Below are positions 51,884 to 55,961 of a stretch of DNA of 64,000 bases, piece by piece (the stretch's first letter is position 1; each line of letters starts with the position of its first letter). The translations under genes and the position numbers were made by a program. Under the pieces are notes generated by a model. The model saw only the letters and a list, made by a program, of their open reading frames with translations, made no database searches and was not told the origin of the DNA. This DNA is from a virus. Taxonomy: Duplodnaviria; Caudoviricetes. The DNA lies in the IMG/VR virus record IMGVR_UViG_2767802241_000002, positions 64,001 through 128,000 of that record, one strand, 5' to 3'.

Positions 51884-53382
51884 ATGAAAAAACATAAAAA
51901 TCTGCTCGAAAGAATGGGCTGAGTTTAAAAGCTAGAGAGGTTGCAGCACTCGAAAAGCAAAATAAGATTAATCAGCAAATGGTGAGTTTGATTAGTCAAT
52001 TGAATAGTAATCAACCAACGTCAAATGCTGGTTATTCATTGCCTGAGATTCACCCCCCGTGGTACCTAAAGGTAAGACGGCGGCGATTGCGCAAGATAGT
52101 TGTGGTTTTGATGCTTATGCCAACAGGACCACAATTTTATAGCGGATTTTTAGGCTATCAACGCCTTGCACTAATGTCACAGTCTAGTGACTATCGCGCC
52201 GTTCCTGAAACCACGGCGAACGAGATGACGCGTGCATGGGGCAAGGTTAAAATCAAAGGGGACGGCGATGATCAATTAGCTGATCGAATTGTATTGATTG
52301 AGAAAAGATTAAAGAAACTTAAAGTTCGTGAACTGATGCGAAAACATATCGAGTGTGAGATGACTTTTGGTCGCTCACAATTGGCGATCAGTATCAAAGG
52401 GCATGAAAATAAAGCCGATGTACCATTAGTAATTTCTCCATCAGGTGTACCGAAGGGAAGTCTACAAAGTTTTAGCCATATTGAACCAATTTGGTCAACA
52501 CCGAGTGCTTACAATGCAAGTAACCTATAGCTGATGATTTCTTCAAGCCCAGTAAATGGTTTTGTACTTGGCAAGGAGATTCATGATGATCGGTTATTGA
52601 CGTTGATTACTCGACCAGTGCCGGACATGCTGAAGCCTGCTTATAACTTTAGCGGCGTATCAATGTTGCAGTTGATGCAGCCCTATGTTGAGCGCTGGCA
52701 GCGGACGGTCGATAGTGTGAGCGCTTTAATTAAGGCATTTTCAATCACTGGGTTAAAAACCAGCATGGATAACGTTCTATCTGGTGGTGAGGGAAGCAGT
52801 GCGCAACTTGTCATGCGTGCACAACTATTCTCAATGCTGCGCGAAAACCTCAATACGATGTTAATTGATAAAGAAAGTGAAGAACTTTTTCAGATTAATA
52901 CGCCGTTGACGACGTTAGATTCACTTATTCAAAAGTCACAGGAACAAATGGCAGGACCATCACATACGCCGCTGGTTAAATTACTAGGGATTACCCCTAG
53001 CGGTCTAAATGCGAATAGTGACGGCGAGATACGCGTCTATAACGATTATATTTCATCGTTACAAGAGTCGTTTATGCGACCGCAGCTTGAAGTGATCTTG
53101 AATCTTGTTCAGCTGGATTTATTTGGTGAAATTGATGAAAACATCTTCTTTGAGTTTGCATCACTACATCAACTGAATGATGAACAACAAGCAACAGTGA
53201 ATAAAACCAAAGCTGAGGCAGCACAAATTCTTATCAGTTCGGGTGTGATTGGTCAGGATGAGGTACGCGATACATTGTCGAAAGATGAATCGGGTGATTA
53301 CAGCGGTATAGATAAAGATAAGTTGCCTGATCCTATGGATTTAGATTATGAAGGTAATCAAGAAACCGTTAACGCTGCCTGA
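51884..53382 (+). CDS. Portal protein (DUF1073-like) with several indels
   Basis: FLGYQRLALMSQ..LKPAYNFSG..KLLGITPSGLNA; fragments 51979-52530 and 52534-53382. Confidence 0.85.
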
Positions 53383-54142
53383 GATAATACCTAATGCTGG
53401 AGTTGAGCGAGCTTATCAACGGGCAATTTTCGCCGTAATACGCGATATGCAGGAAGATGTAAGGATAACACTGCTTAAAGAGTTTAAGGATTCTGCACGG
53501 CGCGAGAAGATAGCCATGGATGGCATATCAGACTGGGCAGCTCATGTTATTGACTTGCTTGTTGACCGATGGACTAGAAAGCTCGATTTGCTTGGACCAA
53601 AGATAGCAGAGCTTTTCTTAAACAAAAGCTTAGTTAATTATGATGTCCAGTTTAAGCGGCATTTGCGCAGTGCTGGCTTTACGGTTCGTATACAGTTATC
53701 ACTAATGCAAGAAGAAGCACTAAAGGCTGTGCTTGCAGAGAATATCGGACTGATTAAATCGATTGGCACACAGTATTTAGCAAACGTGCAAACACATGTT
53801 TGGCAATGTGTAACCAGTGGCTATGATCTTGGTACTTTGTCTAAAAATCTGCAAAAAGATTTTGGCGTGTCAGAGCGCCGTGCCGCATTTATTGCACGAG
53901 ATCAAGGTGCTAAAGCCCATGCCGTTATTGAACAGGCACGGCGTAAAGAATTGGGCATCACAGAAGCAATTTGGCTACATAGCCATGCAGGCAAGAAACC
54001 TAGACCATCACACTTGGCGGCGCATGGTAAAGCATTTGATATATCGAAAGGTATGTATTTGGATGGTAAGTGGGTATTACCGGGACAAGAAATAAATTGT
54101 CGTTGTGGCAGTAAAGCAATTATTGAGGGGATTGTTGGATGA
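53348..54142 (+). CDS. Head morphogenesis protein (Mu gpF-like)
   Basis: WLHSHAGKKPRPSH..PGQEINCRC. Confidence 0.88.
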   Translation: MKVIKKPLTLPEIIPNAGVERAYQRAIFAVIRDMQEDVRITLLKEFKDSARREKIAMDGISDWAAHVIDLLVDRWTRKLDLLGPKIAELFLNKSLVNYDVQFKRHLRSAGFTVRIQLSLMQEEALKAVLAENIGLIKSIGTQYLANVQTHVWQCVTSGYDLGTLSKNLQKDFGVSERRAAFIARDQGAKAHAVIEQARRKELGITEAIWLHSHAGKKPRPSHLAAHGKAFDISKGMYLDGKWVLPGQEINCRCGSKAIIEGIVG

Positions 54143-54321
54143 TGCTGGATCATAGTTTTACGGGGAAAGAAAATTTAGAAAAACAAGATATCAGGCTTCA
54201 GCTTGTTATTGAGTTTAAACACTTGCTTATAGATCAGTATGGTGGTGATGCTTTGGCATATTTAGCTGACATTGATAAAATAACCAAGTATATTGCTGAT
54301 GGTAAATTGCAAAAAACCTAA
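54139..54321 (+). CDS. Small hypothetical protein
   Basis: ATGA-coupled 60-aa ORF. Confidence 0.55.
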   Translation: MMLDHSFTGKENLEKQDIRLQLVIEFKHLLIDQYGGDALAYLADIDKITKYIADGKLQKT

Positions 54322-54322
54322 A

Positions 54323-54511
54323 TTAATTAACCCTCTTATTCTCATCAAAAAATTGAATTGCTTGGATAAGCAATTCATTGTGACTTAAGTTGTGACGTTT
54401 TGCCACATCTTCAATGTATGCGATATCATCGAGTTTAAGTTTGAAGCCTTTAACTTTGACATTGCGTTTTAAGTCACTGGCGTGCTGAATTTCTGATCTT
54501 GATTTAGTCAT
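54323..54511 (-). CDS. Ribbon-helix-helix-like DNA-binding protein
   Basis: VKVKGFKL strand, then DDIAYIEDVAKRHNLSHNELLIQAIQFF helices; AGGA RBS. Confidence 0.75.
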   Translation of the reverse strand: MTKSRSEIQHASDLKRNVKVKGFKLKLDDIAYIEDVAKRHNLSHNELLIQAIQFFDENKRVN

Positions 54512-54527
54512 AGTTTTGTCCTATAGT
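54499..54527 (+). promoter_or_regulatory. Candidate antisense-RNA promoter
   Basis: TTGATT-17 bp-TATAGT pointing into the peptide gene. Confidence 0.55.
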
Positions 54528-54581
54528 TGATATTACTTGGAGGAGAGGCTAGATAGCTGGAACTATCTAACCCTTGTTGTC

Positions 54582-54647
54582 TTAGTTAGCTGATCTTGAG
54601 ATCAAAACTAAGAGAACAATAACGATGATCTTGATAAGGTGTTTCAT
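54582..54647 (-). CDS. 21-aa hydrophobic Ibs-like peptide (candidate type I toxin; not in ORF track)
   Basis: MKHLIKIIVIVLLVLISRSAN; GGAGAG RBS. Confidence 0.7.
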   Translation of the reverse strand: MKHLIKIIVIVLLVLISRSAN

Positions 54648-54717
54648 CGTATCTCTCCAAGGCATTTGTAACATTAAGCTGTTACGGTCATCATTGCTTA
54701 ATTGCGTTGATAGACTC

Positions 54718-54746
54718 ATTGTAGGTTAACCTACAATTTGAGTCAA
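54718..54746 (-). promoter_or_regulatory. Promoter with overlapping 18-bp palindromic operator
   Basis: TTGACT-17-TACAAT on minus strand; TTGTAGGTTAACCTACAA at 54719-54736. Confidence 0.78.
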
Positions 54747-54759
54747 TAGAATTCTTTGA

Positions 54760-54826
54760 AAAAGCTCACTTTTGTGGGCTTTTTTATTATCTAAATTTTA
54801 CTTAACCACCTTCGGGTGGTTTTTTT
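54760..54826 (+). terminator. Two tandem intrinsic terminators
   Basis: AGCTCAC-TTTT-GTGGGCT + T run; ACCACC-TTCG-GGTGGT + T run. Confidence 0.75.
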
Positions 54827-54845
54827 ATGCCTGAACGGTGAGTAA

Positions 54846-55961
54846 ATGAATATAAAAATCGCCATGGATAAATCGATGCGCCGTTACGATGGCAACGGTC
54901 ATTTGATTGTAGAAAAGACCATCATTTCAAAAGCTGCGATTAATCCATACAAAGGTAAAGAAATCCCCAACTTTGAGCAGCTAGGGCTTGACCCTAAAAA
55001 AACTTATATGCTGCTTCGAGATCCAGCGGAATTACAAAATGCTTTAGATACATTCAAGGGTATTCAATTGCTGATTAAGCACATCCCTGTTAATGCGGAT
55101 GAGCCAAGTAAGACGCTAACAGTGGGTGCAATTGGCACCGATGTAGCCATGGAAGGTGATGATGTCGTTGCATCAATGCGGATATGGGATCAAGAAGCAA
55201 TAGACTTGATTGAATCTAAAAAATTGCAAGAGTTGTCAGCGGGTTACGCATATGCCGCTGACATGACTTCTGGTGATTACAACGGCGAACACTATGACGG
55301 TGTGATGCGAAGTATTCACGGAAATCACGTAGCGCTAGTCGAGTATGGTCGCATTGGTCGTGACGCGATTATTGCTGACCACTTACCACCTGAACTAAGG
55401 GAAAAAAACATGAAGTTAAAAAAAGGCTCAACGCCGAAAATTCTAGCTTTGCTACAGCGCATTGCTCAAGACTCGGACATTACCGAGGATACAGTCGAGG
55501 AAGTTGTGAAAACCGTCGGCGATAGCATCGAAGATGAACCGAAGGCTAAAGATAATGATCCAGCCGACCCTGATGCGAATGATGAAGATAGCAAAAAAGC
55601 TCAAGACAAAGACGACGATAAAAAAGCGGCTAACTCTGATGAAAGTAAAAAGCCTGCGATGGATTCTGTGCAAATCGCATTAGATGCTGAAAATCGCGCT
55701 GTAGCGCGTGTAACAGCATTATTCGAAGCGCGTAAACAAGTTGAACCATTAGTGGGTGTAGTGGCAATGGATAGTGCCGAAGCCGTGTATGAATTTGCAT
55801 TAAAAAAACATGGCATTGATACGGCTGGTGTCCATCCAAGTGCGTACAAGTCTATGGCTGGTTTATTGTTAAAGCAAACAACATCACCAACAGTCGCATT
55901 AGATTCAGCATTCACTGAGCTTGATGAGCGTACAAACAAACTGGTAAGCCGTTTCGGCTAA
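54846..55961 (+). CDS. Prohead protease/scaffold (DUF2213-like)
   Basis: ELSAGY..GNHVALVEYGRIG; repeated AMD/ALD motifs. Confidence 0.88.
   Translation: MNIKIAMDKSMRRYDGNGHLIVEKTIISKAAINPYKGKEIPNFEQLGLDPKKTYMLLRDPAELQNALDTFKGIQLLIKHIPVNADEPSKTLTVGAIGTDVAMEGDDVVASMRIWDQEAIDLIESKKLQELSAGYAYAADMTSGDYNGEHYDGVMRSIHGNHVALVEYGRIGRDAIIADHLPPELREKNMKLKKGSTPKILALLQRIAQDSDITEDTVEEVVKTVGDSIEDEPKAKDNDPADPDANDEDSKKAQDKDDDKKAANSDESKKPAMDSVQIALDAENRAVARVTALFEARKQVEPLVGVVAMDSAEAVYEFALKKHGIDTAGVHPSAYKSMAGLLLKQTTSPTVALDSAFTELDERTNKLVSRFG

Follow-up and report, generated by a model that had tools for sequence, protein, structure and literature searches.

A locus in the 64,000-nucleotide stretch of viral DNA analyzed here (the window) is probably a divergent type I toxin-antitoxin system of the Ibs/Sib family that carries its own co-transcribed ribbon-helix-helix (RHH) autorepressor. 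Comparison of related loci across four bacterial families indicates that the RHH protein would switch off the toxin's own promoter. The elements of the locus, their conservation and covariation, and the association between a promoter dyad and the RHH gene are read directly from the sequences. The original prediction had placed a promoter, a palindrome, a 21-aa ORF, a hairpin, an anti-SD sequence and a 62-aa gene on the minus strand, and located all of them correctly.

Organization of the locus

The features are given below by window position and strand.

54139..54845, no strand assigned: whole insertion (moron), flanked by the MuF-like gene and the head protease gene
54139-54321, plus: 60-aa ORF inside the insertion, function not assigned
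54323..54511, minus: gene for the 62-aa RHH protein, a putative autorepressor (phrog_3887, E 2.2e-20)
54499..54527, plus: antisense (Sib-like) promoter TTGATT-17-TATAGT, 9 of 12 matches, its -35 overlapping RHH codons 3-5
54534..54662, plus: predicted Sib-like antisense RNA, covering the entire peptide ORF and the SD, with a predicted 5' end
54536-54546, minus: anti-SD TCTCCTCCAAG, pairing with the SD region 54652-54661 with a 2-nt bulge
54572-54547, minus: post-stop hairpin of 10-11 pairs
54582..54647, minus: gene for the Ibs-like 21-aa hydrophobic peptide, MKHLIKIIVIVLLVLISRSAN, an ORF with GGAG 7 nt upstream
54648..54711, minus: predicted 5' UTR, from a predicted transcription start, containing the SD GGAG (54658-54655) and two hairpins at about 54707-54686 and 54686-54668
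54718..54737, no strand assigned: putative operator, a perfect dyad with core TAGG-TTAA-CCTA that overlaps the promoter spacer and -10
54718..54746, minus: toxin-operon promoter TTGACT-17-TACAAT (TTGACT 54746-54741, TACAAT 54723-54718), 10 of 12 matches
54759..54785, no strand assigned: hairpin resembling a bidirectional terminator, its 7-bp stem set between an A run and a T run, immediately upstream of the toxin promoter
54804..54828, plus: intrinsic terminator separating the cassette from the head protease gene, with a 7-bp G+C stem, a 4-nt loop and a T run

The cassette is a self-contained insertion among prophage head genes; in genome G230 the end of the homologous MuF gene and the start of the protease gene are about 20 nt apart. 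No other copy of the module was found in the 3.74-Mb source genome. The phage genes of this genome resemble those of Acinetobacter phages.

The toxin-operon promoter is the sole minus-strand promoter-like site returned by a scan of positions 54000-55000, and relatives have near-consensus promoters at the same distance from the ATG. Between the peptide and RHH genes the scan found no minus-strand promoter-like or terminator-like site, and we infer that both genes lie on one co-transcribed message. Plus-strand terminators had been predicted at 54760-54826; the scan returns one of them (listed as 54804-54821 plus the T run), and the hairpin at 54759-54785 was read by eye. The former is considered generic because many genomes of the genus contain the same hairpin sequence. 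The latter is kept upstream of the -35 in five of six same-genus loci, with similar hairpins upstream in Neisseria and Pasteurellaceae loci, and could both insulate the toxin promoter and end a long antisense transcript.

The peptide and its predicted antisense RNA

In an alignment of annotated E. coli IbsC with 15 relatives, the window peptide is 37% identical to IbsC, within a range for the relatives of 35% to 63%. The peptides have in common a basic start, a run of about 12 I, L or V residues, and then S-x-x-A-(Y/F); the C-terminal residue of the window peptide is N, and that of IbsC and most relatives is aromatic. A Pfam search with the window's own peptide and its own RHH protein gave no match for either. 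Antisense to the peptide ORF, the Rfam SIB_RNA model matches over its full length at 54499-54657 with 25 bits, which is less than half of its gathering score of 56 bits. Antisense matches of 31.1-51.3 bits are found in 10 of the 16 related loci searched, none of which reaches the gathering score, and the locus is therefore named an Ibs/Sib-like divergent relative and not a curated member of the family. Two further weak SIB_RNA matches, of 18.3 and 16 bits, lie elsewhere in the genome. A covariance model built from six same-genus loci matches Pasteurellaceae loci with 34-39 bits, the same loci that are matched by the Rfam model, and gives no match to E. coli sibC at E <= 1, so that the link to the Ibs/Sib family is a transitive one.

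The predicted plus-strand promoter TTGATT-17-TATAGT is present here and at the same place in most relatives. Taken alone, the copy in the window locus is weak and no better than shuffles (p about 0.09). Its position across loci is fixed and falls into two classes: in 11 loci it lies 12 nt within the RHH ORF, and in 10 loci 10-11 nt upstream of it. It also aligns with the promoter part of the Rfam SIB_RNA model. Candidate 3' ends of the predicted antisense RNA are at about 54662, at about 54690, or at the terminator near 54785. The SIB_RNA matches antisense to the peptide ORF here and in relatives, together with the IbsC alignment, uphold the proposed anatomy of an Ibs-like toxin with a Sib-like antisense RNA and support placing both the 21-aa peptide and the promoter on the opposite strand in a type I locus that is Ibs/Sib-like but divergent.

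Alternatively, the small ORF might not encode a toxin at all, and could instead tune expression of the RHH gene, either as a leader or upstream ORF or as a harmless membrane peptide, the plus-strand promoter then being a chance match. The missing C-terminal aromatic residue, the Rfam score under the cut-off and the 9 of 12 matches of the antisense promoter would all fit such an explanation, which we nevertheless consider quite improbable: peptide sequence, length, SD context, hairpins and antisense match are common to a set of loci that grade into E. coli ibsC/sibC, and three Ibs-like loci without any RHH gene (L006, L009 and L049) retain the same peptide and RNA features, so that the peptide would not exist to serve the RHH gene.

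Predicted fold of the toxin message

The post-stop hairpin and the anti-SD close a four-helix mRNA fold, predicted with RNAalifold, in which both the SD and the AUG are paired. A 22-locus RNA alignment was misaligned between clades near the ATG, and covariation was taken instead from six same-genus loci, for which RNAalifold gives 44 pairs, 10 of them with compensatory changes. Pairing in the second UTR hairpin is kept despite two-sided changes, GTAACA/TGTTAC versus CTAGCA/TGCTAG in L008. The SD/anti-SD duplex of the window locus (dG -13.2, z -1.3, p about 0.11) is no better than shuffles, and the per-locus duplex energies are likewise weak against shuffles (z +1.0 to -2.3). Because of these weak energies the pairing is argued from its conservation: it is kept in relatives with compensatory changes, UA to CG in two of six.

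The minimum free energy of the mRNA fold has a z-score of -8.0, and that of the mirror (antisense) fold -6.3; the RNAalifold energy is -45.0 on the sense strand compared with -34.9 on the antisense strand, and the sense strand has an excess of G-U pairs that is partly owing to prediction from that strand. In the mirror-image Sib-like RNA the SD/anti-SD helix doubles as the closing stem, and since the Rfam SIB_RNA consensus has a matching closing stem, this pairing is a feature of the Ibs/Sib family and not a locus-specific layer. The locus had been described as a three-layer system; the regulatory logic of that description is supported by the sequence comparison, but the SD/anti-SD pairing would not count as an extra layer peculiar to this locus.

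The ribbon-helix-helix protein

Judged by profile and model comparison, the 62-aa protein is a small RHH protein with a predicted β-α-α fold. A HMMER search with the protein returned 11 proteins at E <= 1e-3 (best 1.1e-8), and a simpler homology search returned nothing but the protein itself. A profile of the family matches CopG-family chains with E 0.005-0.013; Pfam RHH_1 matches two of 14 family members (best E 9.3e-5), and the L050 protein gives E 0.0028 against RHH_1, below the cut-off. The AF2 monomer model has a pLDDT of 87.5 with no β-strand called, and its residues 22-62 superpose on CopG, Arc, PutA, MazE6 and TacA1 with modest Z values of 4.0-4.5 and rmsd of 1.7-2.1 Å over 39-41 residues; for RHH domains overall Z is 4-5. 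Foldseek with this model gave no match at E <= 1e-3, and RHH proteins dominate its list.

Many of the RHH structural matches are type II antitoxins (MazE6, TacA1, CopA_SO, ParD), and the protein might accordingly be an antitoxin of type II style that neutralizes a protein toxin, or binds the peptide, besides or instead of repressing transcription. This is highly improbable. The protein extends no further than the second RHH helix and thus would have no C-terminal toxin-binding extension, and no conserved gene comes after the RHH gene, which is followed by a convergent gene in the window and by an annotated terminator in Mannheimia phage PHL101.

Linkage of the peptide and RHH genes

A pairing of peptide and RHH genes had been proposed as a check in Moraxellaceae, Pasteurellaceae and Neisseriaceae; it was found in all three families and also in Orbaceae. 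An Ibs-like ORF lies upstream in 19 of 21 RHH homologues from genomes of Moraxella, Orbaceae, Neisseria and Pasteurellaceae and in 38 of 46 from viral contigs, as well as in the three phage or plasmid records inspected (Mannheimia phage PHL101, Moraxella phage Mcat28 and a Kingella plasmid). Within the same genus, six of ten Ibs-like loci have an RHH homologue 69-89 nt past the stop, and one more has a different small protein there. The partner protein at L052 has no homology to the RHH family and no Pfam match, and its single-sequence AF2 model is all-helical (pLDDT 73.8). The lineage is widespread among temperate phages and prophages, and on one plasmid, in Moraxellaceae, Pasteurellaceae, Neisseriaceae and Orbaceae, and its toxin gene is unannotated in the PHL101, Mcat28 and Kingella plasmid records.

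The putative operator dyad and its covariation with the RHH protein

The palindrome in the toxin promoter is perfect over 16 bp (54720-54735), or 20 bp when extended (54718-54737). In the 3.74-Mb genome it has a single occurrence, versus 0.0014 expected; with up to two mismatches there are two sites versus 1.5 expected. Most loci with the RHH gene have a dyad at the corresponding position. A small protein is encoded downstream at 26 loci; 14 of these have 7-8 symmetric pairs out of 8, and in 17 the perfect arms have a length of at least 5, whereas the four RHH-less loci scored (three of the same genus and E. coli ibsC) have 4-6 of 8, no better than shuffles. At a fifth RHH-less locus, the second Gilliamella copy, no dyad was seen by eye. 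The RHH-bearing exceptions with a poor dyad or none are Mcat28, the Kingella plasmid and L051, at 5 of 8, and the Moraxella MAG L024 and L042, at 6 of 8 with imperfect arms. Automatic promoter picking missed L031, L037, L041 and L043 in one scoring, in which dyads are under-reported for these loci; those of L031, L041 and L043 were seen in other comparisons, and that of L008, missed in the first scoring, was scored in the second.

The center of the dyad varies together with one variable position of the RHH β-strand, V20 in the window protein. Across 29 loci, V, I or L at this position goes with a TTAA center in 18 of 18 cases and other residues go with TTAA in 0 of 11, counts that, like those for the linkage and the dyad, overstate independence in that related loci are kin. 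Residue and center switch together within each of three groups, the window's genus, Gilliamella and Pasteurellaceae. The presence of the dyad alongside the RHH gene and its covariation with the β-strand residue support binding of the RHH protein to the promoter dyad TAGG-N4-CCTA as its putative operator, and agree with the autorepression that had been proposed for the palindrome. The covariation also suggests that the protein would act as a homodimer reading the symmetric operator by its paired β-strands. For studies of RHH specificity, the lineage provides naturally matched pairs of repressor and operator, for example V with TTAA and N or Q with ATAC.

It is unlikely that the RHH protein is instead an independent phage regulator, with other targets or with its own unrecognized promoter, that merely travels with the Ibs/Sib genes while the dyad is bound by some other factor. 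The annotation of phrog_3887 goes no further than generic transcriptional regulator, and the decayed loci L034, L072, L085 and L087 keep the RHH gene after losing an intact peptide gene, both of which would be expected of such a regulator. The dyad, however, is the sole such site in the genome and lies within the promoter of the RHH gene's own operon, it is not seen at the five loci examined that lack the RHH gene, its center covaries with the RHH β-strand residue, and the scan shows no separate RHH promoter.

Proposed mechanism

From the arrangement of these elements we infer both transcripts, their co-transcribed genes, DNA binding, toxicity and a biological role as follows. The near-consensus promoter would give a bicistronic message with the 21-aa Ibs-like membrane peptide first and the 62-aa RHH protein 70 nt downstream. 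The toxin part of this message would fold into four helices, with the SD paired to the downstream anti-SD and the AUG to codons 7-9, and the toxin would be poorly translated because the fold pairs both SD and AUG; the RHH start site would lie outside the four-helix fold. An RHH dimer on the TAGG-TTAA-CCTA dyad, across the spacer and -10 of its own promoter, would shut the promoter off, and toxin mRNA would therefore stay low whatever the copy number. The opposite-strand promoter over the first RHH codons would produce the Sib-like RNA, complementary to the entire toxin ORF and SD, which would neutralize whatever toxin mRNA gets made. In the original prediction the module would serve prophage maintenance or abortive infection, and late plus-strand transcription would silence it as well.

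A more speculative extension, which we regard as doubtful, is that the module is a self-contained switch in which loss, dilution or titration of the RHH protein leads to a burst of toxin transcription, making it a phage-borne exclusion, abortive-infection or addiction device. The toxin promoter and the Sib-like promoter, the latter located over the RHH start codons, face each other; titration, for example by incoming related DNA with the same operator, or loss of the element could set off a burst that raises toxin mRNA and also runs over the antisense promoter, suppressing it, with membrane poisoning as the outcome. If true, the trigger would be transcriptional, which has not been described for type I systems.

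Comparison with known systems

The locus resembles E. coli ibsC/sibC (Rfam RF00113) in a hydrophobic peptide that has a short polar tail and is about 19-21 aa long, in two hairpins, one directly preceding the SD and one, rich in G+C, directly following the stop, and in a predicted antisense RNA gene across the entire ORF with its promoter just beyond the anti-SD. It differs in its SIB_RNA score of 25 bits against the 56-bit cut-off and in a peptide that ends in N and not Y; furthermore, unlike at the annotated E. coli ibsC locus, the window message would continue into an RHH gene and its promoter has a dyad. The original prediction had held that E. coli ibs/sib loci have no such regulator, and the annotated ibsC/sibC locus, with neighbors fau and serA, indeed has neither RHH gene nor dyad. 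Ibs peptides are described in Enterobacteria and Pasteurellales, with apparent homologues in Helicobacter pylori, in the portions consulted of Fozo et al. (2010; PMC2887945), in which no mention of Acinetobacter, Neisseria or RHH was found.

The window RHH protein, phrog_3887 and ORF49 ("transcriptional regulator") of Mannheimia phage PHL101 belong to the same protein family, and the same module lies upstream in PHL101; the phrog_3887 and PHL101 records annotate the protein alone and leave the Ibs-like ORF, antisense RNA and operator unannotated. The consulted portions of a study of Mannheimia phages (PMC4553209) describe type II systems only, confined to lambda-like phages, and do not mention the module. 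A search of the openly accessible literature found no paper on Ibs/Sib with RHH or on Ibs/Sib in Acinetobacter. A toxin message that runs on into its own RHH repressor gene is an arrangement found in no paper searched.

Other systems combine similar parts. On plasmid pMV158 the RHH repressor CopG and the antisense RNA II act on the copG-repB operon. As proposed here, transcription of a bicistronic operon is repressed by the small RHH protein that it encodes, and a countertranscript prevents the other cistron from being translated; in pMV158, however, the controlled product is a replication initiator and not a toxin, and the gene order is reversed, with the repressor first. The CopG structures 1b01 and 2cpg are matched by the 62-aa protein with profile E of only 0.011-0.013, and therefore no sequence-level membership is implied. 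The immI region of phage P22 contains the RHH repressors Arc and Mnt, the ant gene and the sar antisense RNA, so that there too, as proposed for this locus, a phage-borne RHH autorepressor and a small antisense RNA restrain a harmful gene; in P22 the harmful gene encodes an antirepressor, the intercistronic region is what the antisense RNA acts on, and no hydrophobic toxin is involved.

The type I loci tisB/istR-1 and symE/symR are under LexA, and thus share with the proposed arrangement a toxin promoter under protein repression. Their repressor is global and host-encoded elsewhere, whereas here it would be dedicated and encoded on the toxin's own transcript. To our knowledge, host repressors such as LexA are the sole protein control known for type I toxins. 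A toxin mRNA that encodes its own promoter-specific repressor would add a layer of transcriptional feedback to a type I system, as is found in type II systems and in plasmid copy control.

Layout and prophage setting of the cassette

The cassette sits within the head module of the prophage, and the elements listed in the original prediction (promoters, palindrome, 21-aa ORF, hairpin, 62-aa ORF, and the anti-SD, a stretch complementary to the peptide's SD region) are all present in the sequence, arranged with their neighbors as follows.

51979–53382, plus: portal gene in two pieces, the two ORFs matching Phage_portal_3 positions 2–116 and 140–356
53348–54142: Mu F-like gene
54139–54321, plus: 60-aa ORF overlapping the MuF stop (ATGA)
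54511–54323, minus: 62-aa ribbon-helix-helix (RHH) ORF
54499–54527, plus: promoter-like TTGATT-17-TATAGT, pointing across the peptide ORF
54546–54536, minus: TCTCCTCCAAG, complementary to the SD region
54572–54547, minus: hairpin of 10–11 bp
54647–54582, minus: 21-aa ORF with GGAG ahead
Between promoter and GGAG, minus: leader of ∼64 nt with two hairpins
54720–54735: perfect palindrome, extending to 20 bp and spanning spacer and −10
54746–54718, minus: promoter TTGACT-17-TACAAT, 10 of 12 matches, the sole minus-strand promoter-like site in 54000–55000
54785–54759, read on the minus strand: bidirectional terminator-like hairpin, identified by eye
54804–54821, plus: terminator-like site beyond the peptide ORF, with a T run to 54828
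54846–55961: DUF2213 head protease or scaffold gene, with ∼66% DNA identity to genes of AB1-type Acinetobacter phages
In the same head module: minor head protein gene

The 3.74-Mb genome has a single copy of the 16-bp palindrome (0.0014 copies expected), and two sites are found when up to two mismatches are allowed (1.5 expected). Because ∼20 nt separate the end of the MuF homologue from the start of the protease homologue in another genome of the genus (G230), the segment 54139–54845 is an insertion that brings a promoter and terminators of its own, comprising the cassette and the 60-aa plus-strand ORF. This ORF, part of what the related G230 prophage lacks, has no match in Pfam or PHROG. The portal gene is broken by one in-frame TAG (52528–52530, plus strand); this could mean a defective prophage, or a stop that is suppressed or read through. 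The hairpin AACCACC-TTCG-GGTGGTT with its T run (54804–54828, plus strand) is a widespread terminator sequence, recurring across most of the genus's genomes at 92–100% identity over ∼30 nt. Within the final 20 codons of the RHH ORF lies a 10-bp hairpin with a T run after it (54354–54377, minus strand); should it terminate transcription, the stop codon would be missing from some RHH messages. Matches above Rfam cut-offs to C4 antisense RNA, isrK and Aggregatibacter sRNA 82 lie within 1.5 kb of the module in three homologous loci (L008 2827–2914; L026 3853–4038; L040 1908–2098), suggesting that prophage immunity regions are a common setting for the module.

Linkage of the peptide and RHH genes

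Linkage of the two genes beyond the window, for which a tblastn check had been proposed, was found in Moraxella, Neisseria and Pasteurellaceae, and in Orbaceae as well. In the same genus, five other loci with a shared core were found by DNA search in 247 genomes and four more, in two further genomes, by a model search in a sample of 151, giving ten Ibs-like loci with the window's own included. An RHH homologue lies 69–89 nt past the peptide stop in six of the ten (the window, L005, L007, L008, L050 and L051), no RHH or other small protein is found downstream in three (L006, L009 and L049), and a different 65-aa protein takes the place of RHH in the last (L052). L052, the third Ibs-like module of one genome (G185), has a different promoter dyad, TGTATTCTAGTATACA; the 65-aa protein is unrelated to the RHH family and may act as a non-homologous repressor in place of RHH.

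Beyond the genus, scanning one genome per species by pattern plus tblastn returned 21 RHH homologues (one in a Moraxella MAG, nine in Gilliamella, one in other Orbaceae, one in Neisseria perflava and nine loci in Pasteurellaceae). An Ibs-like ORF is located upstream of 19 of these, 18 by automatic detection. The 19 include the Moraxella locus L024, where loss of the stop codon extends the ORF to 48 aa; the remaining two of the 21 have a decayed peptide remnant (L034) and a truncated RHH gene (L039). Among viral contigs the ORF is present at 38 of 46 RHH loci, and the eight ORF-less loci include one without any upstream sequence, two with 184 nt only, and two with truncated RHH genes. The RHH gene was also found by tblastn in 10 Mannheimia phage records, 2 Moraxella phage records and one Kingella potus plasmid. 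In three inspected phage or plasmid records its product is annotated as hypothetical protein, transcriptional regulator or RHH protein, and the peptide ORF is present in all three and annotated in none.

Tandem modules occur in the Kingella potus plasmid (L047, 868–1003 and 1360–1490), with an RHH gene in both copies, and in Gilliamella L031 (2362–2686 and 3525–3578), where the second copy has neither RHH gene nor dyad; these duplications resemble the E. coli ibs/sib arrays. In L024, L097, L099 and L100, which may be decaying copies, loss of the stop or a frameshift extends the peptide ORF to 48 aa, in some cases so that it overlaps the RHH start.

The RHH protein and its putative operator

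The 62-aa protein of the window has no Pfam match, and it matches phrog_3887 ('transcriptional regulator') over its full length at E 2.2e-20. An exhaustive HMMER search gave 11 representatives at E ≤ 1e-3 (best 1.1e-8), most of 61–99 aa, and a 14-sequence alignment displays a conserved S-D-x-K-R-G-V-K-x-K-G-F-K-L followed by two helices. The family profile reaches CopG-family chains in the PDB at E 0.005–0.013, and Pfam RHH_1 matches two of the 14 members, as well as L050 and L051 below cut-off. In the AF2 model (pLDDT 87.5), residues 22–62 superpose on CopG, Arc, PutA, MazE6, TacA1 and StnY over 39–41 residues (Z 4.0–4.5, rmsd 1.7–2.1 Å); the list of structural matches consists almost wholly of RHH domains, though the Z values are modest. 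The protein lacks a C-terminal extension of the type by which RHH antitoxins bind protein toxins.

In most RHH-bearing loci a dyad of general form TAGG-N4-CCTA is located between −35 and −10 of the toxin promoter. Symmetry was scored as symmetric pairs out of 8 in a 16–17 nt window of the best promoter, for which shuffles average 4.2–5.7. Among 26 loci with a downstream small protein the score is 8 in six, 7 in eight, 6 in seven and 5 in five, one of these five being a mis-picked promoter, and the four RHH-less loci (three of the genus and E. coli ibsC) score 6, 5, 5 and 4. By a second score, perfect arms with a spacer of at most 6 nt, arms of at least 5 are found in 17 of the 26, four being unscored for lack of a promoter passing the filter; scores in the RHH-less loci are 0, 0, 0 and 3, three of these four being likewise unscored. 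The second Ibs copy of Gilliamella L031, which lacks an RHH gene, has no dyad by eye. Symmetry is poor despite an RHH gene in Moraxella phage Mcat28, the Kingella plasmid and L051, and partly so in L024 and the Haemophilus locus L042.

The strongest evidence for the dyad as a putative operator is protein–DNA covariation across 29 loci, between the residue flanked by two lysines of the predicted β-strand (V20 in the window) and the dyad center. The four central base pairs are TTAA in 18 of 18 loci with V, I or L at this position and in 0 of 11 with N, Q, A, P, S or T, counts that are not independent events because the tabulated loci are kin. Centers in the 11 are ATAC, ATTC, ATGT, TACA, TGCA, TATA, AAAA, a 5-nt center, or no dyad. 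The switch occurs inside the window's genus (V/TTAA, N/ATAC, A/TACA, P/TGCA) and also inside Gilliamella and inside Pasteurellaceae, and such repeated switches are hard to explain unless the RHH protein reads the dyad center.

Predicted RNA structure and the putative antisense promoter

RNAalifold analysis of six same-genus loci predicts four helices on the peptide-sense strand: the SD with the anti-SD, ACGAUGA with UCAUCGU (pairing the start codon to codons 7–9), a long hairpin within the peptide ORF, and a post-stop hairpin. The SD/anti-SD pairing is no better than shuffles in the window locus alone (z −1.3); the originally predicted anti-SD is nevertheless real and conserved because this four-helix fold carries compensatory changes across the six loci, in 10 of 44 pairs. 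The anti-SD helix also closes the predicted Sib-like RNA, and this stem has a counterpart closing the Rfam SIB_RNA consensus. The window sequence folds at −49.1 kcal/mol in the sense direction (z −8.0) and its antisense mirror at −47.4 (z −6.3), and the alignment energy favors the sense strand (−45.0 versus −34.9). G-U pairs are more frequent in the sense strand (21 versus 4), a count biased by the use of that strand for the structure prediction; with the antisense strand used instead, the counts are approximately equal.

The best sigma-70-like site on the antisense strand has a fixed place across loci, with the −35 (TTGATT or TTGACA) over RHH codons 3–5 in 11 loci and the site 10–11 nt upstream of the RHH ATG in 10. 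Its scores are not significant against shuffles in the AT-rich loci taken one by one (p 0.06–0.18) and significant in the Pasteurellaceae loci (11.5–12 of 12.5).

Relationship to Ibs/Sib

An E-value-mode Rfam scan matches SIB_RNA (RF00113) to 54499–54657 of the plus strand over the full model (1–147), aligning the promoter segment to TTGATT-17-TATAGT and the model center to the complement of the peptide ORF. At 25 bits, below the gathering score of 56, this match is weak by itself; it is strengthened by higher-scoring homologous loci, matches of a covariance model of our own, and the IbsC alignment. Ten of 16 homologous loci searched, all found by other routes, have an antisense full-length match at 31.1–51.3 bits, each below 56 (Orbaceae L026 51.3, Neisseria L033 41.8, L027 41.6, Haemophilus L042 39.1, minimum L025 31.1). 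The covariance model made from the six same-genus loci matches Pasteurellaceae loci L037, L035, L042 and L043 at 34–39 bits and gives weaker matches in Moraxella, Neisseria, Kingella and Orbaceae loci and none to E. coli sibC. Annotated E. coli IbsC is 37% identical to the window peptide (35–63% for 15 aligned relatives). The E. coli ibsC locus is laid out as in the window, with a hairpin directly 5′ of the SD, a G+C hairpin directly 3′ of the stop, an anti-SD-like stretch next, and the Sib promoter beyond on the opposite strand. We conclude that this is probably a divergent Ibs/Sib-like locus, its tie to the curated family being transitive and its Rfam score below the threshold.

The available portion of Fozo et al. 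(2010, PMC2887945) places Ibs homologues in Enterobacteria and Pasteurellales, with apparent homologues in Helicobacter pylori, and does not contain the words Acinetobacter or Neisseria. In the portions available, the Mannheimia phage paper (PMC4553209) places type II systems in lambda-like phages only, and the T1TAdb paper (PMC8594479) presents Ibs/Sib as mRNA plus antisense RNA without the word 'repressor'. Searches of the open-access full-text literature turned up neither an Ibs/Sib locus described as having a co-transcribed repressor nor any account of Ibs/Sib in Acinetobacter.

Proposed mechanism

A sequence scan between the peptide and RHH cistrons found no minus-strand promoter-like or terminator-like site, and we infer that the two are co-transcribed. 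In the proposed mechanism the peptide–RHH message would be made from the near-consensus promoter, the peptide cistron would be locked by its own fold and by the Sib-like RNA, and the RHH cistron would lie outside the fold, its product closing the promoter via the dyad. The cassette may serve prophage maintenance, exclusion or abortive infection, and late plus-strand transcription, as originally proposed, may silence it. The same logic is found in CopG plus RNA II of pMV158 and in Arc plus sar of P22, and would here be applied to a type I toxin.
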